Positions 9,983-32,000 are shown, counted from the first letter of the stretch. The stretch: 32,000 bases of DNA from Alkalilimnicola ehrlichii MLHE-1 (GCF_000014785.1 NC_008340.1:1980001-2012000), one strand, 5' to 3'. Notes: a model not told the origin generated them from the sequence alone. Made by a program: numbers and translations.

Positions 9983-10115
9983 GACAGTTCCGTGATGGAA
10001 CGGTTACCGGCGCGCACGGTACCCTGCTTTCATGACAGTTTCATTACAAACCTGAAACAAACCGATCCCTGCCAGCAGCCGGCCGGGGAGCACTGAGGAC
10101 GCGCCGGGGCTGAAC

Positions 10116-10121
10116 TATACT
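10116..10121 (+). promoter_or_regulatory. Candidate -10 element (TATACT) for the CBS gene
   Basis: TATACT lies in a locally AT-richer patch 37 nt upstream of ATG 10158. AGGAGG at 10144-10149 is a clear Shine-Dalgarno. The -35 region matches only weakly. Confidence 0.3.
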
Positions 10122-10157
10122 TGTCAATGCGGTCCCCGCAACAGGAGGGTGATTGAC

Positions 10158-10574
10158 ATGAAAGTGAACGCAGCCATGCATCGTGGCGTGGAGTGGTGTG
10201 CCCCGGACACCCCCATCATGGAGATCGCCCGGCTCTTTCGCGAGAAGGATATCGGCGCCATTCCCATCGGTGAGAACGATCGGCTGGTCGGCATGCTGAC
10301 CGACCGAGACATCGTCTGCCGGGGTCTGGCGGAAGGCCGGGACGTGGCCTCCATGACCGCGGGTGATGTCATGACCCGGGACATCATCTATTGCTGGGAG
10401 GACGACGACATCGAGGATGCCGTACACCTGATGGAAGAGCACCGGGTGCGCCGTGTCCCCGTCCTCAACAGCGACAAGCGCATGACAGGCATGCTGTCCA
10501 TGGGTGACATCTCCCACGCCGCCAACCCGGAACTCTGCCGCGAGTTCCTGGGCGCGGTCGCCGCGCACCACTGA
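10158..10574 (+). CDS. CBS-domain pair protein
   Basis: MKVNAAMHRGVEW... with two CBS-like repeats (...IGAIPIGENDRLVGMLTDRDIV... and ...VRRVPVLNSDKRMTGMLSMGDI...). ATG 10158 sits 8 nt after AGGAGG; the ORF-track start at 10149 is a GTG inside or adjacent to that SD. Confidence 0.85.
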   Translation: MKVNAAMHRGVEWCAPDTPIMEIARLFREKDIGAIPIGENDRLVGMLTDRDIVCRGLAEGRDVASMTAGDVMTRDIIYCWEDDDIEDAVHLMEEHRVRRVPVLNSDKRMTGMLSMGDISHAANPELCREFLGAVAAHH

Positions 10575-10582
10575 CCCCCACC

Positions 10583-10607
10583 GGCGGGTGCGCCCCACGC
10601 GCCCGCC
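10583..10607. terminator. GC-rich hairpin at the convergent junction of the CBS gene and the tail-like operon
   Basis: ggcgggtgcg / cgcgcccgcc form a 10-bp stem (one G-U pair) with a 5-nt loop, 9 nt after the CBS stop. A weaker 6-bp hairpin (ccccga...tcgggg, 10630-10654) follows the minus-strand operon stop. Neither has a U-tract. Confidence 0.35.
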
Positions 10608-10655: not shown

Positions 10656-11033
10656 TTAATCGCCTGCCTCTCCGGCGGGCCGGGGGACCTCATGAGCGCT
10701 CTCCGGGGGGCGAAAGAGCGCGCGCTGGGCCACGTAGAGCAACAGCAGGGTAGCCGCCAGCCAGGCGAGTACCCAGGGGCCCGGGTGCGCCCAGTAGGCG
10801 CCGGCCACGGTGAGGTTGCTGAGCAGCATGGCGTTGCCGAAGGCGGTGCGGCCGGGGCGATCACCCGCGTAGGCGGCCAGCAGCATCAGCGCCAACCACA
10901 GGCCCAGGAGGATGGTGAGCGCCAACCACCAGCCCTGGTGGCCCAGGGCGAGCAGGCCCAGCGTGGCTGGCCACTGCAAGAGGGCGAAGGCGTAGGGGTC
11001 GGCGAGTCGTCGTTCCAGGTGCGAGCTATCCAT
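10656..11033 (-). CDS. Small integral membrane protein (about 4 predicted TM helices), last gene of the operon
   Basis: 125 aa. Hydrophobic stretches lie at about residues 14-31, 35-56, 64-82 and 86-103, followed by a hydrophilic charged tail (RPPESAHEVPRPAGEAGD). ATG 11033 lies 9 nt after the toxin's TAG (TAGGGGACCTGAATG, with GGGGA as SD). Confidence 0.6.
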   Translation of the reverse strand: MDSSHLERRLADPYAFALLQWPATLGLLALGHQGWWLALTILLGLWLALMLLAAYAGDRPGRTAFGNAMLLSNLTVAGAYWAHPGPWVLAWLAATLLLLYVAQRALFRPPESAHEVPRPAGEAGD

Positions 11034-11042
11034 TCAGGTCCC

Positions 11043-14000
11043 CTAGCTGCGTCGAAAGAAATGGACATGAAAGGCATCGGTCTTGCGGGCCGCCTCCCAC
11101 TGGGCGTCGGTCATCCTGGCCTCCTTCTTCAGCGTAGCGCTCCGCCGGTAACCGCCATCCGGCCGATTGTCGACAATCGCCCGTGCCAGGTCGTGATCCA
11201 CCCCGTCCAGCTCGGCCAACCGGCCGACATTGTCCGCACGCTTGGCCGCAAGGGCCTCGTCGTCGATATAGAACCGGGTCTTGGGCCGGGCGCGGATGCT
11301 GTAATCATCCAGGGCGTTCGCCTTGAAACGGTTATCCACCTGATGGCTCGCCACCGTGCCGGCGGCCTTGCCGTCCGGCGTTATCTTCTCCGAGCTGCAG
11401 TCGAGGGTCCGGGGGATCCGCTGCTCCGCCTGGATGATATCCGCGATCACGTCGGCGTCGGTATCGCCCTCCTCCGTCCGGTGGGCTTCGGCCTCCGCCA
11501 CCAGCGGGTGTGATACGCCATAGTTGGCGGTGACGATGTAGTTAACGGCCTGTCCCCCTTCCACCGCGTCCTTGACCGGGTCTTCAAACCGGTGAAGCAT
11601 CGATTGTGAATCCCGGTTGTTGGCACCCTGCGTGAGCGGCGTCAGGTTGTCCCAGGTATCCCCCGGGCCGCCCAGATGCTCATTCAACAGGTGCCCACGG
11701 ACATAGTAGGTACCCCCGCCGTCCATGCGCCGCCGCAACAGGTTCCAGCTCTCGTTCTCGGGCGCATTACGCGGCGTGCTGCCGGTCGGATGGTCGCGGG
11801 TCAGCAACTCCACCCGCACCGAGCTGCCGAAACCCGCCGCGGTTCTGGGGCCGTAGATGGCCGGCGTGGAAGGCAGGTCGGCGACCGAACCCCCGGTGGA
11901 CTGCTCCAGCAGCTCCCGGGTCAGGGTCGAGAGCTGGTCCATGGCCTCATCCATCCTGTTCTTGAGTGCCTTGCGCTTCTCCGTGTAGGTCGGCTCGTCG
12001 ATGGCCGAGGCCTCCAACTGGCCCTCCAGGTCGCGGGACTCCCCGATAAGCCCCTCCACCGCTTCCGCGGCCGCCAACGCCCGTCGGCGGGTGTCGGCGG
12101 CGTCGTCCGGCAGTTTCAGGGCGGCGATGAATTCGGCGTAGGGGGTGGGCCGCGACTCGATGGTCAGCGCCTGGCGCTCCTTCTCCGCGTCGATGGACAG
12201 GGTATGCCGTTCCCCGCCCTCGGTCTCCACCTCGCGCTCGGCCTGCCACCAGTTGACCAGGGCGCGGGCCCCGCGCCGCACCGCCCGCCCCCCGCGGCGG
12301 GCCAGCTCCACGAAGCCCTCGCCCAGGCGCAGGGCGCGCTCGATGAGCCAGTCGAGGGCGGCGTCGACCCGCTCGCGGATCCCCTCCACCATCTCGCGGA
12401 TGCGGCTGCTGACATCCCCCAACCCGGCGTAGTGGGCCAGGAAGGCCAGCGCCGGAGGCACCGCCCGGCCCAGGGCATCCTCCAGGTAGTCGGCGGCCTT
12501 GCCCAACGCCCCGGAGGCGATCTCGGCCACCCCGGCCAGGAAGCGGTTCGCCACCTCCAGCAACGCCCGCAACTGGGCGGTCAGCGCCGTGATCACCCGG
12601 TAGAGCTCCATCACCAGGGCGATGACGTTGGAGACCCCGGTGGGGGCGAGCAGCGGGGTGAGCCGGATACTGGCCTGCTTGATGATGGTGACGCTCACCC
12701 AGTTGATGATGCTGTCCAGCACCTGCCCGCCCAGATCGCTCAAGCGCTCCCGCAACGCCGCCCACAGCGCGCCCGGCCCCTCCTCGACCAGGGTGCGCAG
12801 AAACTGCCAGGCGCCGGAGGCGTGTTCCAGCATCCGCCGCATGCGAAGCGCCACGCCGGAGCCCACCTGGCGGCCGATGCGGTCGAAGATCCGGTCGGTG
12901 GTGATATCCAGGATCTGCAGCACCACCCCGAGGATCGAGCGCAGGGAGAAGTCCTCCGGCGGCTCGATCCCGCCCTTGCGCAGGGTGCCGAACAGCCAGC
13001 CGGCTATCCCCGCCTTGAGGTGGCCGACGATGTTGCTGAAGAACTGGGAGAAGCCGCGCCCGGCCGCCCGCACCAGGTTGAGCAGGAAGCCGATGGGGTC
13101 CTGCAGGATATGCCCGATGGCCGCCGCGGCGTTGGCCAGGAGGCTGACCACCAGCTCGGGCGGCAGCCCGATCAGCCGCAGTGCGGCCTGGAAGAAGGCC
13201 CAGGCGGCCGCGGCGAGATCTCCGTCCACGAACAGCTTGCGCAGTATCTCCATGGCCTTGGCCTTGACCTTCTCCCAGAGGTCCGGGAGGGCCAGGAGCT
13301 GGCCGAAGACCGGGATGCGCGCCAGTATCTGGTTGACGATGAAGTCCTGCACCGGCTTGCGGATGCACTCCGGGATCAGCCGCCAGGCCGCGGACAACAC
13401 CAGTTGCGGCAACTGCATCAGGTCGGTCACCACCGAGAGCAACCGGCGCACCACGCCGATCATCCGCTCGATGAAGGGCGTCAGCCGGTCAAAGCCGGCG
13501 ACCAGGCCGTCGAACAGCTGCTTTACCCCGCTCTCCGCCCAGCGGCTGAGCCCGGCGATGCCCCGCTCCAGCCAGCCCAGCGCCCGCGCCAGGGGCCGGG
13601 TGATGTCCAACTGGCGCAGACCGGAGAAGAAGGCCGCCACCTTATCCCCCACCCCGCCAAGCCGCTCCACCAGCCAACGCCCGGAGTCGACCAGGAGGCC
13701 CCGCACCCGCGCTAGCACCGCTTCCACGGTGGGCAACGCGTTGGCCAGCGCCGCCCGGTTCTCCGCCACGCCAGCGCCCGGCCCGCCCTCCTCGCCGGCC
13801 CCCGCCATCTGCTGCTCGGCCGTGCCCAGGTCGTTGCTGAGCGCCTGCATGTCCTCGCCCAGGCGCTTGACGAAAGCGGGCGGCACCAGCTCCCGCAGCC
13901 ACTCCACGCCCTGCTGTATGGGCTGCCAGAGCGGCCGGGTGCGTGCCTTGATCCAGTCCCACGCCTCGCCGGCCTTGTCCTGCACCCAGCCGACCAGGCC

Positions 14001-15389
14001 GCCCTGATCGTTTCCGCTGCTGTCGTTGCTGGATCCGAATAGCTTGCCCTTGACCCAGTCCCAGGCCGCACCCAGGGTCTCGCGAATGGGCCGCGTCCAG
14101 TTCCAGATCCGACGGCCGAGGGCCTTGATGCCGTCCCAGAGGTCACCGGCCACCCCGGTGATGAAGTCCAGGGCGCGGGCACCGGTGCTCTCCCAGAGAT
14201 CGGCGAAAAAGTTACCGACGGGGGCGAGAAAGTCGGTGAGCCGGTCCCAGGCCGCCCCGGCCGCATCGGTCACCAGGGTGCGCAGCCGCCGGATGGCATC
14301 GAACAGCGGCCCGCAGTCCCCCGAGGCCAGCGCCTCCACGATGGCGCCCGCCCGCTCGAGCATGCCGGAGAAGAGCTCGCTCAGACGCTCCACCGACCCC
14401 TCGGGCGTGAGCCGGGTGACCGCCTCCACCAGCCGGTCGAATACGGCGGCCACCCGGTCCTTGAGCCACCCCACCGGGCCCTTGTCGATGATCTCCTGGA
14501 GTATGGGGGCCAGGTTGGGGGCGAGCTTCTCCACCACCGCCATGCCCTTGGAGGCAATGAAGTTGCCGGCCTTGTCGAAGATATCGCCCACGGCCCCGGT
14601 GAGGCGGTCGTACGCCCCCTTGGCCATGTCGATCCCGGCCCCCACCAACCGGCGACCACCTCGGCGCAAGCTGTCAATCCAGGACCGCCGCACCGGCGGG
14701 GCAGTGGCATCCTGATGGTCCACGCCCGCACTGCGCTGCTGCACCACGTGGGTCAGTTCGTGGGCGATGAGCCGCCGGCCGTCACGGCTGTCGGGCCGGA
14801 AGGCGCCGCGGTTGAAGGCGATGTGCTCGCCCAGGGTGAAGGCGTGGGCGTGGATGGCCTCGGAGAGGCGGGCGGCCTCGTCGTCGGTGTGTATGCGCAC
14901 CGCGGAGAAATCCTGCCCGAAGCGCGGCTCCATGAAGGCGCGCAGGTCCTCCGGCAGCGGGCGCCCCCCCTGCTGCAAGTGTCCGATGCGCCGGGCCAGT
15001 GGTTCCGGCAGGGCATCGGCCGCGCCGGGGGCTTCCTCCTCCCGCTCCTCCGGCAGGGGGACGGGGGCGTCCGCCGGCGCGGCACCGTGCGCCCCGCTCG
15101 CGACCGGAGCGGTGGCGGGAGGCGCCCGGCGGGCGGCATCGGGCGACCCGGCGCCGGGGGCCGTCGGGTCGTCCGATGCCGGCGCCGGGCCGCGGGTCAC
15201 CCGCTCGGCGGTGCGCTCGGCCTCGCGCTCCAGCGGGTCGTCGCGGGCACCGAGCTTGAGCCGGGGCTGGAGGCCCGCCTGGCCGATCACCGCGGCGATG
15301 GCCGCGCGCTGGCTATGGGGCTTCGCCACCGGCTGCGGGCGCCGGGCCGGTGCCGGTTGCGCGCGCTGTTGCTGGGCGAAGGCCACCAT
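11043..15389 (-). CDS. DUF4157 domain-containing polymorphic toxin with C-terminal DNA/RNA non-specific (EssD/YeeF-like) nuclease domain
   Basis: 1448 aa, ATG 15389 preceded by GGGGGAG. Domain order: a Pro/Ala-rich N-terminus; the DUF4157 signature (EPRFGQDFSAVRIHTD...AFTLGEHIAF...LIAHELTHVVQQ); an approximately 950-aa helical, Trp-rich middle (AWDRL / AWDWVK / AWDWIK); the nuclease motif YYVRGHLLNEHLGGPGDTWDNLTPLTQGANN...AVNYIV; and an HhH-like tail. Confidence 0.85.
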   Translation of the reverse strand: MVAFAQQQRAQPAPARRPQPVAKPHSQRAAIAAVIGQAGLQPRLKLGARDDPLEREAERTAERVTRGPAPASDDPTAPGAGSPDAARRAPPATAPVASGAHGAAPADAPVPLPEEREEEAPGAADALPEPLARRIGHLQQGGRPLPEDLRAFMEPRFGQDFSAVRIHTDDEAARLSEAIHAHAFTLGEHIAFNRGAFRPDSRDGRRLIAHELTHVVQQRSAGVDHQDATAPPVRRSWIDSLRRGGRRLVGAGIDMAKGAYDRLTGAVGDIFDKAGNFIASKGMAVVEKLAPNLAPILQEIIDKGPVGWLKDRVAAVFDRLVEAVTRLTPEGSVERLSELFSGMLERAGAIVEALASGDCGPLFDAIRRLRTLVTDAAGAAWDRLTDFLAPVGNFFADLWESTGARALDFITGVAGDLWDGIKALGRRIWNWTRPIRETLGAAWDWVKGKLFGSSNDSSGNDQGGLVGWVQDKAGEAWDWIKARTRPLWQPIQQGVEWLRELVPPAFVKRLGEDMQALSNDLGTAEQQMAGAGEEGGPGAGVAENRAALANALPTVEAVLARVRGLLVDSGRWLVERLGGVGDKVAAFFSGLRQLDITRPLARALGWLERGIAGLSRWAESGVKQLFDGLVAGFDRLTPFIERMIGVVRRLLSVVTDLMQLPQLVLSAAWRLIPECIRKPVQDFIVNQILARIPVFGQLLALPDLWEKVKAKAMEILRKLFVDGDLAAAAWAFFQAALRLIGLPPELVVSLLANAAAAIGHILQDPIGFLLNLVRAAGRGFSQFFSNIVGHLKAGIAGWLFGTLRKGGIEPPEDFSLRSILGVVLQILDITTDRIFDRIGRQVGSGVALRMRRMLEHASGAWQFLRTLVEEGPGALWAALRERLSDLGGQVLDSIINWVSVTIIKQASIRLTPLLAPTGVSNVIALVMELYRVITALTAQLRALLEVANRFLAGVAEIASGALGKAADYLEDALGRAVPPALAFLAHYAGLGDVSSRIREMVEGIRERVDAALDWLIERALRLGEGFVELARRGGRAVRRGARALVNWWQAEREVETEGGERHTLSIDAEKERQALTIESRPTPYAEFIAALKLPDDAADTRRRALAAAEAVEGLIGESRDLEGQLEASAIDEPTYTEKRKALKNRMDEAMDQLSTLTRELLEQSTGGSVADLPSTPAIYGPRTAAGFGSSVRVELLTRDHPTGSTPRNAPENESWNLLRRRMDGGGTYYVRGHLLNEHLGGPGDTWDNLTPLTQGANNRDSQSMLHRFEDPVKDAVEGGQAVNYIVTANYGVSHPLVAEAEAHRTEEGDTDADVIADIIQAEQRIPRTLDCSSEKITPDGKAAGTVASHQVDNRFKANALDDYSIRARPKTRFYIDDEALAAKRADNVGRLAELDGVDHDLARAIVDNRPDGGYRRSATLKKEARMTDAQWEAARKTDAFHVHFFRRS
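11142..11225 (-). other. Helix-hairpin-helix-like DNA-binding motif at the toxin C-terminus
   Basis: LAELDGVDHDLARAIVDNRPDGGYRRSATLKK resembles the ComEA-type HhH (L..LPGIG...A..I...R..NG.F.S...L). Confidence 0.5.
11487..11804 (-). other. beta-beta-alpha-Me nuclease toxin domain (Endonuclease_NS_2 / EssD-YeeF type)
   Basis: RGHLLNEHLGGPGD-x3-NLTPLTQGANN matches the RGHLI..LGG.G..NL.P....N core that I recall for EssD/YeeF-type toxins. The RGH triplet is encoded at 11691-11699. Confidence 0.7.
14736..14963 (-). other. DUF4157 (zincin-like) domain with HExxH motif
   Basis: Residues about 143-218 of the toxin. HELTH is encoded at 14748-14762 (cacgaactgacccac on the minus strand). Confidence 0.8.
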
Positions 15390-27564: not shown

Positions 27565-27791
27565 ACCGCCCCCGGCAGCTGCGCCCGGATGGCGCGGGCG
27601 ATGCAGTCGGCAGCCTGTCGGTCGCTGGCCCCGGCGGGCAGCGTCACCGGGCCGACCTGGAGCCGGGCCAGGTCCGCCGATCCGGCCGTGGGGGCGTCCG
27701 CCAGTGCCCGACCCAGCAGGCGTACGATATGCGGCGCGCGCCCGGCGTAGCCCTCGGGCAGTTGCAGGCGCAGGTGGTGGATATCAATCAT
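27561..27791 (-). CDS. Small hypothetical protein (76 aa), translationally coupled
   Basis: ATG 27791 lies inside the ATPase 3' end (CATGATTGA, 8-nt overlap), and its TGA overlaps the next gene's GTG. Sequence MIDIHHLRLQLPEGYAGRAPHIVRLLGRALA... No family recognised. Coding status rests on its position and the coupling. Confidence 0.5.
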   Translation of the reverse strand: MIDIHHLRLQLPEGYAGRAPHIVRLLGRALADAPTAGSADLARLQVGPVTLPAGASDRQAADCIARAIRAQLPGAV

Positions 27792-29136
27792 GCAGCACCT
27801 CCTGAGGCAGGTGGGGAGCCAGATCACCCAGCTCCCGGGGGGTTTGTTCCCGGCCGTCCTTGCCCAGCTCCCGCCAGACCGCCAGGGCGACCTCCGCCAG
27901 ACCGATGGCGCACTCCCGCCCGGCGGCCAGGTAGGCGGCGTGCAGGGCGGCATTGCGGATACCGCCGCCGGTGAGGTTGACTGAGCGGGCCAGCAGTTCC
28001 AGATCCAGGTCGGGCGCCCGCGGGGCCCGCGGCGGCAGCAACCGGCCCCACAGTGCGGCCCGCCCGGCGACGCCGGGGCGCGGGAAGGTCACCACCATCT
28101 GAAAGCGGCGGGCAAAGGCGCTGTCCATCTGCTTGCGCATGTTGGTCGTGAGGATGCAAGGGCCCCGGTGGGCCTCGATGCGCGCCAGAAGATGGCTGAC
28201 TTCCATGTTGGCGTAGCGGTCGCGGGCCTCCTTGACCTCGCCCCGCTTGGCGAACAGGGCGTCGGCCTCGTCGAACTGCAGCACCATGGGCTGGCGGTGG
28301 GCGGCGTCGAAGAGCTGGTTGAGGTTCTTCTCCGTCTCACCGATGTACTTGCTGACCAGGCGCCCCAGGTCCACCCGGTAGAGCGGCCAGCCCAGGCTGT
28401 TGGCAATGACGCTGGCGGCCAGGGTCTTGCCGGTGCCGGAGGGGCCGTTGAACAGCGCGATGGGCCCGCCCACCGATTGGCCGCCCCAGCGCTCCACCAC
28501 CGTCTCCCGGTGCTGCAGCCACATCAGATACTCGCGCAACTGGGCCCGGTGAGGGGCCGGCAGCACCAGGTCGTCCCAGCCGGCGGGGTTGTCCACCGGC
28601 ACCGCACCGGGGGGCGCCGGCGGCGCCTGGCGGACGCCGCGCAGGCGCGCACCGAGGCCGGGCTCCGGGGTGAGCGGCGCGTAGGGATCGCCGTCGCGGG
28701 CGCGCAGCAGGCCGCGACGGCGCAGCGGTGCGCCGGCGTCCAGGGCCTGCTCCAGCAGCCGGGCCTGGTGCGGGGCGAGCGCCAGCAGCTCCTGGACCAG
28801 GGCCCGCGAGGGGTAGGGCTGCGGGCTGCCCGGTTGCAGATTCTGGAACATCCAGCCCACCCGCGGCTCCATATCGGGCCCCAGGACGCAGGCCAACAGG
28901 TCCCACTCGACAGGCTCCAGGCCCAGCCCCAGGGCGCGCTCCCAGGCACCGTCCGGGGCCCGTAGCCGCTCCACCTGGTGTTGCAGCCGCTGGAGCTGCT
29001 TCAGTGCCGGCCGATCGGGGTCCTGGCCCTGACGGCTGCGCGACAGGCAGTAACCGAGGTATTGCAGCCGGTCCCACTCCGGCTGCAACTGCTCGGCGAT
29101 GGGCAGGGCCTCGTCGGCGGCGGCCGCGGCGTTCAT
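27784..29136 (-). CDS. AAA+ ATPase (Afp15/Pvc15-like eCIS assembly ATPase)
   Basis: 450 aa. Walker A GPSGTGKT (28423-28446), Walker B VLQFDEAD (28261-28284), then YIGETEKNL and ILTTNMRKQMDSAFARRF (second region of homology), preceded by an approximately 220-aa non-ATPase N-domain. ATG 29136 overlaps the DUF4255 stop (ATGA). Confidence 0.9.
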   Translation of the reverse strand: MNAAAAADEALPIAEQLQPEWDRLQYLGYCLSRSRQGQDPDRPALKQLQRLQHQVERLRAPDGAWERALGLGLEPVEWDLLACVLGPDMEPRVGWMFQNLQPGSPQPYPSRALVQELLALAPHQARLLEQALDAGAPLRRRGLLRARDGDPYAPLTPEPGLGARLRGVRQAPPAPPGAVPVDNPAGWDDLVLPAPHRAQLREYLMWLQHRETVVERWGGQSVGGPIALFNGPSGTGKTLAASVIANSLGWPLYRVDLGRLVSKYIGETEKNLNQLFDAAHRQPMVLQFDEADALFAKRGEVKEARDRYANMEVSHLLARIEAHRGPCILTTNMRKQMDSAFARRFQMVVTFPRPGVAGRAALWGRLLPPRAPRAPDLDLELLARSVNLTGGGIRNAALHAAYLAAGRECAIGLAEVALAVWRELGKDGREQTPRELGDLAPHLPQEVLHD

Positions 29137-30148: not shown

Positions 30149-31201
30149 TCAAAACCTCCGCAGGTAGTTACGGGAGAGTGCGGCGCGATCCGATGTCGAT
30201 GGGCGGCGCCCCTTCCGGGCCGGGGGGTCGGCGTTGACCACCACCACCTCGACCTGGCCGATGCGGACCTGTGGGGTTGACCGGGCCGCATGCGTCGACT
30301 CCGGGCCGGGCTCCGGCGCGGGGCCGGCGTGGAAGGCGGCGCCGTCGCCGGAGGGGTCGCCGGACGGCTCCGCCCGGGTGACCGCCTCGACGGGCTCGGG
30401 TGCTGCCGCCGGCTCGGGCCGGTCCGCAGTGGCGGTGAACCCGCCCGTCGAGGGCGCCCCGACAGGGGCCGGGCCGGACGCCGGAAACCCCTCAGTGGCC
30501 GGGGCCTCCGGCGGGTCGGTCCGGTCGACCCCGCTCGGCGGAGCACCGGTGCCCCGCCGGGGGCGGGTATAGGGTTCAGAAGGGGTGTCGGCTCCCGGAT
30601 TCCCTCTCGTTGACCGCTTGCTCACACTGGCGTTTGAGTCAGCTGTCTCCAGTCGTCTTGCGGTTGAAGGACTTTCCTTTTCATTGCCGGTTTCCGTGAC
30701 TTCAGCCTTCACGCTCAGTCTTTCCTTTTCCAAAGTCGTCGAAGCACTGTGTACGTCTACGGACCGTGCGTTGTCGTCAACCGTTGCAGACCGATCAACA
30801 GATCCTCTTTCACCTGCGATCCCATTGCGGTCACGCACGGCAGTCGCCGGTTTGTTCATCGACCCAGTCTTTCCATTTACCGTAGTTCGACGTTCAACAT
30901 ACTGCTCCCCGGCGACGGGGGGCCCGGCCTCTGCCCTGTGACGGGCGCCGGGCAAAGGGAGAGCGGTATTGCCGGAGGGTGCTCTCCCGGCCGGCTTACC
31001 GCGCTCCGACACCTGGGGAGGTCGCCCCTCCCCGGCCTTCTGAAACCGGTACACGGTTGCTGCACCGTCCTCGTCCTCCTCCGGCGGTGGGGCCGGACTC
31101 TCGTCCGGCTCCGCCTCCCCGGCGGGGCTGCGCCAGAGGGTGGTCCCCCCCGGGCGAAGGGGACGGCGCGCGTCCCGCAGAACATCGTGTAAAAAGCGCA
31201 T
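30149..31201 (-). CDS. Pro/Ala-rich low-complexity protein; candidate tape-measure/length-determining protein
   Basis: ATG 31201 is preceded by AGGAGG. 350 aa, mostly low-complexity, with a charge- and Ser/Thr-rich core and a conserved-looking C-terminus (VRIGQVEVVVVNADPP...). The tape-measure assignment comes from position only. Confidence 0.5.
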   Translation of the reverse strand: MRFLHDVLRDARRPLRPGGTTLWRSPAGEAEPDESPAPPPEEDEDGAATVYRFQKAGEGRPPQVSERGKPAGRAPSGNTALPLPGARHRAEAGPPVAGEQYVERRTTVNGKTGSMNKPATAVRDRNGIAGERGSVDRSATVDDNARSVDVHSASTTLEKERLSVKAEVTETGNEKESPSTARRLETADSNASVSKRSTRGNPGADTPSEPYTRPRRGTGAPPSGVDRTDPPEAPATEGFPASGPAPVGAPSTGGFTATADRPEPAAAPEPVEAVTRAEPSGDPSGDGAAFHAGPAPEPGPESTHAARSTPQVRIGQVEVVVVNADPPARKGRRPSTSDRAALSRNYLRRF

Positions 31202-31220: not shown

Positions 31221-32000
31221 CTATTGCGTCATCCCCCTGGCGCGGTCGATCAGCCTGAGATAGGCCTCGCGCCGTTCCCGCGGAAGGTCCAGGATCTCCC
31301 GCTCGCTCCAGTGATAATGCGTGGCCAGATTGTGCACCTGCGCCAGCAGGCTGTCCGGGGCGCGCCCCAACAGGCTGTAGGGGTTAAGCACCACGCGGTT
31401 GTCGTGTTCGCAGTGCGGGCACGGCGCCTGCGCCTGGCTGACCACCCCGGGCGAGACGGCGTCCATGGCCCGGTCGACGGCCTCGTGCCCCGCCTCACCC
31501 AACTCGGCCACGTCGGCCCCACTGGGGGCGAGCAGGCAGCGCTGCAACAGGGCCTCCACATCACCGGCCTCGGCCAACGACTCCTGGTCAGCGCCGTTGG
31601 GCAGGCGAAAGCGCCAGTTCCGGCCCTGCCAGTCCACCGCCACCTCCGGAAAGGTCGGCCCCGCCGGATCGGTGGGCAGGCAGGCCAGGTCGAGCTGAAA
31701 GTCGAAGGCCTCGCCACAGCCGGCACAGCGGGCCGACATCCAGGCGTGGCGCTCACCAAAGTGCACCGCCAGCGCACGCATGAGGTGCTGGCGGTCGGCC
31801 ACGCACAGGCGGCGCACCCGCTCGGTGCTCGCCGGCCCGCCGGCCAGCGCCTCCAGCGCGGTGGCCAACACCGCGGTCACCGCCGCGGGGGTGGAAGGCG
31901 CGGTCCGGGCCGCTTCGAGCAATGCCATCTCCAGCGCCCCGTCCACCGGCTTGAAGCGGAAGTCCCGTCGCCGCTCGCCCGCCTCCAACAGTCCTCCCGG
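31221..32000 (-). CDS. Zinc-ribbon-containing hypothetical protein of the tail-like operon (5' end possibly outside the window)
   Basis: The frame is open to base 32000; the ORF-track start at 31988 is a TTG. Two CxxC pairs about 100 aa apart (CAGCGEAF and CPHCEH). The C-terminus reads HYHWSEREILDLPRERREAYLRLI. TAG at 31221 is 17 nt before the next gene's SD/ATG. Confidence 0.6.
   Translation of the reverse strand, partial: PGGLLEAGERRRDFRFKPVDGALEMALLEAARTAPSTPAAVTAVLATALEALAGGPASTERVRRLCVADRQHLMRALAVHFGERHAWMSARCAGCGEAFDFQLDLACLPTDPAGPTFPEVAVDWQGRNWRFRLPNGADQESLAEAGDVEALLQRCLLAPSGADVAELGEAGHEAVDRAMDAVSPGVVSQAQAPCPHCEHDNRVVLNPYSLLGRAPDSLLAQVHNLATHYHWSEREILDLPRERREAYLRLIDRARGMTQ

Follow-up and report, generated by a model that had tools for sequence, protein, structure and literature searches.

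How could a protein of 1448 amino acids (aa) be carried by an extracellular contractile injection system (eCIS), and what would it do once it had been delivered? This question is raised by a gene of Alkalilimnicola ehrlichii MLHE-1 that occupies positions 11043..15389, on the minus strand, of a 32,000-nucleotide stretch of the genome (NC_008340.1:1980001-2012000; the whole stretch is termed the window here). The original prediction for this gene, made before any database had been searched, described a modular toxin and candidate injected payload in which a loading or processing module, a translocation-like helical domain and a nuclease with its own DNA clamp follow one another. Here, we use profile searches, structure prediction and comparison of related loci to examine the protein, and find that it is probably a tape-measure-derived eCIS effector resembling Tme of Streptomyces davawensis. 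Its combination of DUF4157 with a C-terminal toxin is not new; this architecture was described by Geller 2021 (PMC8213781) and Nagakubo 2024 (PMC11126660), and the protein is therefore a further example of a known effector kind.

The open reading frame (ORF) is complete, and its translation is 100% identical to the 'eCIS core domain-containing protein' of A. ehrlichii MLHE-1 in a search that returned hundreds of homologues. A Shine-Dalgarno sequence (GGGGGAG) lies 5-6 nt 5' of the ATG, and the stop codon of the preceding tail-fibre gene is 24 nt ahead of it. GC content at third codon positions (GC3) is 74-100% along the frame, which fits a genome of 70% GC and indicates that the frame is really coding. 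Every motif quoted in the original prediction was found where it had been placed, and the motifs, homologues and Pfam matches taken together far exceed chance expectation. An NCBIfam scan of the 1448-aa protein returned no family. The gene and the parts of its product are as follows, with the basis of each assignment in brackets; AF2 denotes AlphaFold2 and pLDDT its predicted local distance difference test.

11043..15389 (-): complete ORF, 1448 aa (identity to the MLHE-1 protein)
15015..15389 (-): Ala/Pro-rich, mostly disordered segment, aa 1-125 (composition; AF2 pLDDT <50 for aa 1-41 and 71-124)
15192..15260 (-): acidic helix motif LxxGxxxDxxEREADRxAxxV, aa 44-66 (family consensus)
14727..14960 (-): DUF4157 / eCIS_core domain (PF13699), aa 144-221 (Pfam E=8.2e-34; AF2 pLDDT >90)
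14748..14762 (-): HELTH, an HExxH zinc-binding motif, H210/E211/H214 (invariant columns)
12255..14630 (-): tape-measure-protein-like all-helical region, aa 254-1045 (PHROG profiles and AF2)
13899..14255 (-): Trp-rich repeat block, aa 379-497 (AAWDRL, AAWDWVK, EAWDWIK; Trp nearly invariant)
12324..13154 (-): most conserved hydrophobic sub-module, aa 746-1022 (shared with helical proteins linked to actinobacterial contractile injection systems, CISs, and with an orphan protein of plasmid pSCL4)
11880..12254 (-): pre-toxin unit, aa 1046-1170, a three-stranded sheet and helical hairpin (AF2 pLDDT about 90)
11280..11864 (-): non-specific nuclease domain, aa 1176-1370 (PF13930; EndA/NucA-like fold)
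11616..11708 (-): ββα-Me catalytic core, aa 1228-1258, YYVRGHLLNEHLGGPGDTWDNLTPLTQGANN (invariant columns; strand-strand-helix in the model)
11046..11267 (-): ComEA-type helix-hairpin-helix (HhH) tail, aa 1375-1448 (profile of 19 tails; AF2 model)

Architecture of the protein

The region that bears most directly on how the protein could be carried is its helical middle. Eight PHROG families of the class 'tail length tape measure protein' match aa 254-1045 with E values from 1e-12 to 6e-4, led by phrog_305 (E=1.3e-12), phrog_58 (E=1.9e-11) and phrog_1535 (E=2.4e-10). The likeness extends to relatives, among which phrog_58 matches 31 of 34 (best E=5.9e-32), phrog_1272 28 of 34 and phrog_1535 26 of 34. 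AF2 builds the middle almost entirely from long helices, in a model of aa 1-1170 that has low overall confidence (predicted template modelling score, pTM, 0.36), and Pfam has no family for the region at E<=1. The Trp-rich repeats and three hydrophobic stretches noted at the outset are present as described: AAWDRL, AAWDWVK and EAWDWIK fall within aa 379-481 (13947-14255), 12 Trp residues lie in aa 381-497, and the hydrophobic stretches span aa 657-673, 739-762 and 918-940. What had been called a translocation-like helical domain is, on this profile evidence, not a generic translocation domain but a homologue of phage tape-measure proteins, and this homology answers how so long a protein could be carried.

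The middle is also the best-conserved part of the protein, with family identity of 50-60% over aa 650-825 and many near-invariant Trp, Pro and Gly residues. This conservation bears on a simpler account, in which the protein is ordinary lumen cargo and its middle does no more than separate the domains or keep the protein soluble, with neither a membrane function nor a tape-measure-like one; the middle would then be the 'long linker' of Geller 2021. That study indeed describes linkers exceeding 1000 aa that separate DUF4157 from the toxin domains (PMC8213781), and searches of the PDB and BFVD gave no structural match to solved tape-measure proteins. However, conservation of this kind is not expected of a passive linker, and the region both marks out a family (2,260 clusters at E<=1e-30) and matches tape-measure profiles in relatives across the family; the simpler account is accordingly improbable.

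The family was delimited by an exhaustive HMMER search with aa 222-1170, with clustering at 50% identity, which yields 4,680 clusters when the threshold is relaxed to E<=1e-3. In the best 150 clusters the alignment extends over about 800 residues, and the proteins are mostly 1,200-1,500 aa long. Custom hidden Markov models (HMMs) detected DUF4157 in 123 of the best 145 representatives, the same nuclease in 83 and the HhH tail in 14. Among 36 members in which the nuclease HMM detected nothing, Pfam identified APOBEC-like deaminases (5), divergent PF13930 domains (4), Ntox15 (1) and AHH (1), and the remaining members of those 36 have no recognisable Pfam domain. A comparison of nearest relatives locates the exchange: identity to the relative P0003 is 90-98% over aa 1-1050, falls to 54-64% over aa 1101-1300 and reaches 20-29% over aa 1301-1448, which places a recombination breakpoint within aa 1046-1170. 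Because identity breaks so sharply between such close relatives, the scaffold behaves as a polymorphic-toxin carrier with an exchangeable C-terminus. From its N-terminus to the end of the tape-measure-like region, this scaffold is, by sequence comparison, conserved in thousands of protein clusters.

Ahead of the middle, the protein opens with a Pro/Ala-rich segment, as first proposed; Ala and Pro make up 24% and 15% of the first 143 aa. Within this otherwise disordered part a helix at aa 52-66 is modelled with pLDDT of about 89, and the acidic motif that includes it is present in 71 of 145 family representatives. The DUF4157 domain that follows is confirmed (PF13699, 116 bits against a gathering score of 22), as is its intact HELTH. 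Residues H167, H210, E211, H214 and Q217 are invariant in 55 homologues and in 34 more distant ones, and since these comprise the metal-binding and catalytic residues, the pattern argues for an active metallopeptidase at the HExxH centre. A PDB sequence search with the DUF4157 region gave nothing significant; a related DUF4157 domain is catalytically required in VgrG2b. Effector processing or activation appears the likeliest job of the domain. The further suggestion that DUF4157 acts as a loading module is not supported, because in AlgoCIS, the one system in which this has been examined, the DUF4157 proteins Cgo1 and Cgo2, which fill the tube lumen, depend for loading on a disordered N-terminal domain and an AAA+ ATPase, while DUF4157 itself is dispensable (PMC8894135; bioRxiv 10.64898/2026.05.27.728243). 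By analogy with AlgoCIS, aa 1-125 are a candidate loading signal.

At the other end of the protein, profile and structure comparisons agree on a His-Me-type nuclease of the EssD/YeeF kind, as had been proposed. The domain scores above the gathering threshold of PF13930, the Pfam family of EsaD/EssD, YeeF and RhsA (PMC9990079), and in relatives the match reaches E values down to 3.9e-13. For aa 1160-1448, AF2 supplied with 49 homologues gives a model with pLDDT 94.8 and pTM 0.81; its top Foldseek match in the PDB is EndA of S. pneumoniae (3owv, E=1.8e-6, probability 1.00, target template modelling score 0.50), followed by NucA of S. agalactiae (4qh0), NucA of Anabaena (1zm8) and then EndoG and EXOG. 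In those 49 homologues H1233 (of the RGH motif), G1241, N1248 and N1257 are invariant and G1232, P1251, E1269 and K1273 nearly so, and the model has the ββα-Me layout, with H1233 at the end of strand 1 and N1257 at the start of the helix. Searches with sequence in place of structure were less productive: a PDB search with the C-terminal 285 aa alone gave a chance match only, and a homologue search with the C-terminal 289 aa added 8 proteins, mostly fragments, with no relatives from type VII secretion, Rhs or contact-dependent inhibition systems at that sensitivity.

The nuclease is followed by the HhH tail, which the original prediction had read as a DNA clamp from the string LAELDGVDHDLARAIVDNRPDGGY (aa 1391-1414). 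AF2 models the tail as five helices with pLDDT >90, and the same tail is present in about half of the close homologues. At the family level the assignment stands, since a profile of 19 tails matches EEPD1 (2e-16), ComEA (2e-10, 8dss, and 1.8e-8) and Tex (3.7e-7), and 14 of the 19 tails match PF12836 (HHH_3); the A. ehrlichii copy itself falls short, at E=0.004 and 17.7 bits against a gathering score of 27. This weakness enters into the suggestion that the nuclease fold at the C-terminus is degenerate, has lost its catalytic activity and serves only to bind DNA or something else. The A. ehrlichii HhH has GVD where GIG is canonical, and the PF13930 score is barely past its threshold, but the invariance of H1233, N1248 and N1257, the near-invariance of G1232 and E1269 and the very high confidence of the EndA-like model make a dead enzyme exceedingly improbable.

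Two further observations concern this end of the gene. The segment between scaffold and nuclease (aa 1046-1170) has no Pfam match and carries a conserved signature, WWxxRxxF...GExHxL.F..G....L...S.P; it lies exactly where identity between close homologues drops from above 90% to below 60%, and it may be a pre-toxin or processing unit. Base composition changes nearer the C-terminus. Of the last four 50-codon windows, which cover aa ~1251-1448 (11043-11640 (-)), those at aa 1251-1300, 1351-1400 and 1401-1448 have a GC3 of 74-84% and the one at aa 1301-1350 has 90%, against 80-100%, mostly 88-100%, in the remainder of the gene, and the lowest GC of the locus (0.651) is found in the 1-kb window over the C-terminal part. 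These values are consistent with a more recent acquisition of the toxin module.

The operon and the question of a ruler

No other large gene follows this one in its eCIS operon, which runs from sheath to fibre on the minus strand. The operon opens with genes for the sheath, a gp19-type tube protein, a 263-aa zinc-ribbon protein, a 350-aa disordered protein, a Pvc16_N cap and an AAA+ ATPase; these are followed by CIS_tube, a LysM-like protein, a GPD-like hub, a VgrG spike with an oligonucleotide/oligosaccharide-binding fold, gp25, a baseplate wedge and Baseplate_J, and the operon ends with Tail_P2_I, a DUF6519 protein and then the toxin gene. The start of the operon lies beyond the window and was recovered from an identical metagenomic contig. 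DUF6519 is eBAP5, the baseplate anchor of eCIS tail fibres (PMC12923769), so the toxin gene lies directly 3' of the fibre gene. This arrangement recurs in five related loci (Ideonella, several metagenome-assembled genomes and metagenomes) and in four more distant members of the lineage that a search with the sheath gene identified (Marinobacter, Opitutales, Desulfopila and Chloroflexota). Unrelated housekeeping genes precede the sheath in two relatives, which indicates that the operon begins at the sheath; the region 5' of the operon was judged from these two, since A. ehrlichii itself was not among the genomes that a scan with the sheath protein identified. On the 3' side, the cluster in the window gives way to unrelated genes for a Na/Pi cotransporter and PhoU. 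Three neighbours within the operon matter for what follows.

15414..18350 (-): tail-fibre gene with DUF6519 (eBAP5 anchor), directly upstream of the toxin gene (domain match)
27784..29136 (-): AAA+ ATPase, Cis15/Pvc15-like, same operon (domain match)
30149..31201 (-): 350-aa disordered, Pro/Ser/Thr/Glu-rich protein, rival ruler candidate (conserved termini; between tube and cap genes)

The extent given for the fibre gene is a revision. As listed, its ORF of 1314 aa (15414-19358 (-)) overlaps the Tail_P2_I gene (18353-20104 (-)) by about 1 kb, and because homology to the fibres of relatives starts at about aa 340, the real gene is taken to span ~15414-18350 and to encode roughly 980 aa. The ATPase, by analogy with Alg15 of AlgoCIS, is a candidate cargo-loading unfoldase.

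A protein with a tape-measure-like middle, encoded in such an operon, might be more than cargo. It could be the system's own length-determining tape measure, the equivalent of Afp14/Cis14, that has acquired a toxin and so serves as ruler and payload at once; this reading overlaps with that of an effector and does not exclude it. In the Afp/PVC gene order afp14 directly follows the tail fibre, which is the slot occupied here. At 1.5 Å per residue, the value familiar from phages, about 790 helical residues would extend over about 119 nm, which is a length typical of eCISs. The protein is also the only tape-measure homologue from the sheath to the end of the operon, since the other unannotated ORFs have no tape-measure match among PHROG profiles, and its gene is the largest ORF of the cluster, as that of Tme is (next come Baseplate_J, 1025 aa, and the fibre, about 980 aa). 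Against this, the verified ruler Alg14 of AlgoCIS has 526 residues for a 121 nm particle, or 0.229 nm per residue, and by that coefficient the present protein would be far too long to be a ruler; moreover, the DUF4157 cargo proteins of AlgoCIS are dispensable for assembly. There is also a second ruler-like candidate in the operon, the 350-aa disordered protein encoded beside the cap and ATPase genes. Its relatives (L008:11143-12165, L009:3961-4923, L010:13267-14634 and L011:3981-5282) are 320-455 aa long and share conserved ends, MRFLxxxLxDARRP at the N-terminus and VxIGQVEVxV...SRxYLRR[FL] at the C-terminus, around a variable centre. The protein has no Pfam or PHROG match, and in this pattern of fixed ends and variable length it looks like a molecular ruler. 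With evidence on both sides, a dual role as ruler and payload is possible but doubtful.

A bolder form of the same idea can be stated, although we consider it unlikely. In a lineage without a separate helical tape measure, the toxin itself would be the ruler around which the tube polymerises, the HExxH centre would process the protein, and the nuclease and HhH pair would release or process DNA at the target membrane. If this were true, thousands of database proteins with 'DUF4157 + long linker' would be mis-described hybrids of structural protein and effector, and the pairing of an EndA-like nuclease with a ComEA-like HhH, which mirrors two DNA-handling proteins of natural competence, would act beyond simple killing.

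Two other genes of this lineage deserve mention. The 263-aa protein (31221-31988 (-); L001:2485-3276) has two CxxC pairs, forming a zinc ribbon, has no family assignment and is kept directly after the tube gene throughout this eCIS lineage. A second DUF4157-only protein of 375-495 aa is encoded between the fibre and large toxin genes in three loci (L002:8498-9946, L003:8468-9955 and L005:8922-10049) and is absent from the loci of A. ehrlichii and L053.

Downstream genes and the target

A nuclease toxin invites a search for its immunity gene, and two ORFs downstream of the toxin gene were considered. The nearer one is part of the same transcription unit.

10656..11033 (-): 125-aa small membrane protein, co-transcribed with the toxin gene (four hydrophobic helices; kept 3' of the toxin gene in relatives)

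This ORF starts 9 nt past the toxin stop codon and is translationally coupled to it. Its family is small, comprising only 19 proteins, all unannotated; identity is 63% in L005/L006, 87% in L053 and 44% in L002, where a 202-aa protein contains it as its C-terminal part. The idea that it is a cognate immunity protein was rejected. It is of an integral-membrane type, and it keeps 87% identity in a locus in which the C-terminus of the toxin is down to 20-64%, so that it shows no variation in step with the toxin module; in Ideonella it is missing, and the toxin gene is followed there by a convergent gene. It is thus probably not an immunity protein. Roles as a holin-like release factor or as a membrane accessory are conceivable. 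The second candidate, a 184-aa ORF (10044-10598 (-)), lies past the end of the operon and ahead of the Na/Pi cotransporter gene. It matches nothing in Pfam or PHROG and was likewise rejected, as no relative of it occurs in any related locus; it may be spurious or strain-specific. Neither downstream ORF has a Pfam match, and no adjacent EsaG/YezG-type immunity gene that varies with the toxin was found.

The lack of a varying immunity gene bears on who the target is. Conceivably the system acts on the producer or its kin, in regulated cell death or release of extracellular DNA, as in the CIS/Tme of Streptomyces; Tme-dependent release of extracellular DNA and developmental phenotypes have been reported in S. 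davawensis (PMC11126660). The locus offers some parallels, in that L003 has no same-strand gene at all downstream of the toxin gene, and the pairing of EndA-like and ComEA-like modules recalls DNA-processing machinery. Yet immunity genes are commonly absent for eCIS toxins, including many that have been validated (PMC8213781), and the operon encodes a cap, an AAA+ loader and a fibre that carries an eBAP5 anchor, all typical of released eCISs that bind external targets. An action on self or kin is therefore decidedly unlikely.

Related effectors and a proposed mechanism

The closest counterpart of the A. ehrlichii protein is Tme (BN159_7576) of the S. davawensis CIS, which combines DUF4157, a tape-measure-like region and an EndA-like nuclease; its toxicity needs the catalytic His, it co-purifies with the spike and tube initiator, its degradation of DNA is Mg2+-dependent, and tme-like genes occur across phyla, as stated by Nagakubo et al. 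2024 (PMC11126660). The two proteins, likened by architecture, share an N-terminal DUF4157, long helices with remote tape-measure homology, helices of hydrophobic character (marginal as membrane-spanning segments in the present protein), the status of largest ORF and, at the C-terminus, a ββα-Me nuclease that is EndA-like and has the (D)RGH and H-N-N residues; 3OWV is the best structural match of the nuclease in both cases. They differ in length (2247 aa for Tme, 1448 aa here) and in host, which here is gammaproteobacterial; in addition, the nuclease here scores as PF13930 and carries an extra ComEA-type HhH tail.

Similarities and differences are also found with other systems. The DUF4157 eCIS-associated toxins (EATs) consist of DUF4157, a long linker and a toxin domain (Geller 2021, PMC8213781; Danov 2024, PMC11297309), and share with the present protein a near-N-terminal DUF4157, a very long intervening region, a C-terminal toxin, a position at the 3' end of the eCIS operon and, often, the lack of an immunity gene; the EAT papers call the intervening region a 'linker', whereas here it is a conserved tape-measure-like domain. 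Cgo2 of AlgoCIS (ALPR1_12690, 1228 aa), likened by domain order, likewise has a disordered N-terminus, DUF4157 and a large C-terminal region, but AlgoCIS, unlike the system described here, has a separate, verified tape measure in Alg14. As for the nuclease, EsaD/EssD, YeeF, Dickeya RhsA and Pne1 all have PF13930 with a ββα-Me fold as the C-terminal toxin of a modular secreted effector, and Pne1 is eCIS-delivered, being an effector of the metamorphosis-associated contractile structure that is injected into eukaryotic cells (10.1101/543298). In contrast to those toxins, the A. ehrlichii protein has no LXG/WXG, Rhs or PAAR element and no EsaG/YezG-type immunity gene, and among solved structures its fold is closest to EndA/NucA.

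In the S. lividans SLP system, a DUF4157 protein and a tape-measure-related helical effector of the CIS are the separate proteins Sle1 and Sle2 (PMC13277306), while here both functions are fused in one polypeptide, together with a nuclease. The aa 746-1022 module leads to similar pairs: Mycobacterium and Mycolicibacterium encode 1274-aa helical proteins that contain it (L019:5216-9040 (-) and L026:1554-5378 (+), E about 1e-34) and that adjoin small DUF4157 ORFs beside a CIS sheath gene, by description resembling Sle1/Sle2. A 1322-aa 'hypothetical protein' of S. clavuligerus plasmid pSCL4 (WP_009999482.1, L007:10537-14505) shares aa 610-1022 at 29% identity (E=1e-33); it lacks DUF4157, its gene is followed by a DUF6301 gene, and there are no CIS genes in the vicinity. 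It may be an orphan effector that depends on a CIS encoded at another site. A PHROG scan of the 1274-aa proteins, the pSCL4 protein and two of the short DUF4157 neighbours gave no matches, and in this the actinobacterial proteins differ from that of A. ehrlichii.

Several results weigh against the reading of the protein as a Tme-like effector. A tblastn search with aa 222-1170 against 50,697 phage genomes gave no match at 1e-3, so the tape-measure likeness is visible at the profile level only. With the aa 1-1170 model, Foldseek found nothing significant in the PDB (best E about 1), and in BFVD the best E was 4.6e-3, with tape-measure entries among the non-significant matches only; given the pTM of that model, its global fold comparison is uninformative. 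The three hydrophobic windows, with Kyte-Doolittle values of about 1.5-1.6 and charged residues in the family consensus, are marginal as transmembrane segments. The PF13930 match, at 28.5 bits against a gathering score of 27, covers profile positions 50-115 of 132, about half. The toxin gene stands 3' of the fibre gene, unlike tme, which is immediately upstream of the baseplate genes. Finally, a literature search found no paper that connects Alkalilimnicola with contractile injection, and the genus was not found in the supplement of the Tme paper (PMC11126660). On the other side, the position of the gene in the operon and the precedents of Cgo2, Tme and Pne1 support, by analogy, the original view of a candidate injected payload, and a Tme-like effector is the probable identity of the protein.

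As a Tme-like effector, the protein would act in a series of steps, most of which are drawn by analogy from the systems above. The AAA+ ATPase of the operon would recognise the disordered N-terminus, as for Cgo1 and Cgo2, and the protein would be threaded in an extended form into the tube lumen in the manner of a phage tape measure, to be expelled when the sheath contracts. The hydrophobic helices may aid the crossing of the target membrane, or sit in it. A metallopeptidase activity at HExxH would most likely serve to process or activate the effector, and the nuclease, dependent on Mg2+ and kept on DNA by its HhH clamp, would then degrade the nucleic acid of the target.

The role of DUF4157, the distinction between ruler and cargo and the nature of the target organism are questions that the literature has already posed. 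To these the A. ehrlichii gene contributes a compact proteobacterial example, of 1448 aa and with all catalytic residues intact, of an architecture (DUF4157, tape-measure-like region and toxin) whose only experimentally characterised member so far is the Streptomyces Tme. The 'long linker' of Geller 2021 corresponds in this family to a conserved domain of about 800-850 residues with swappable C-terminal toxins, and recognition of this unannotated tape-measure-like domain is of practical use both for annotation and for the engineering of eCIS cargo by exchange of C-terminal domains.

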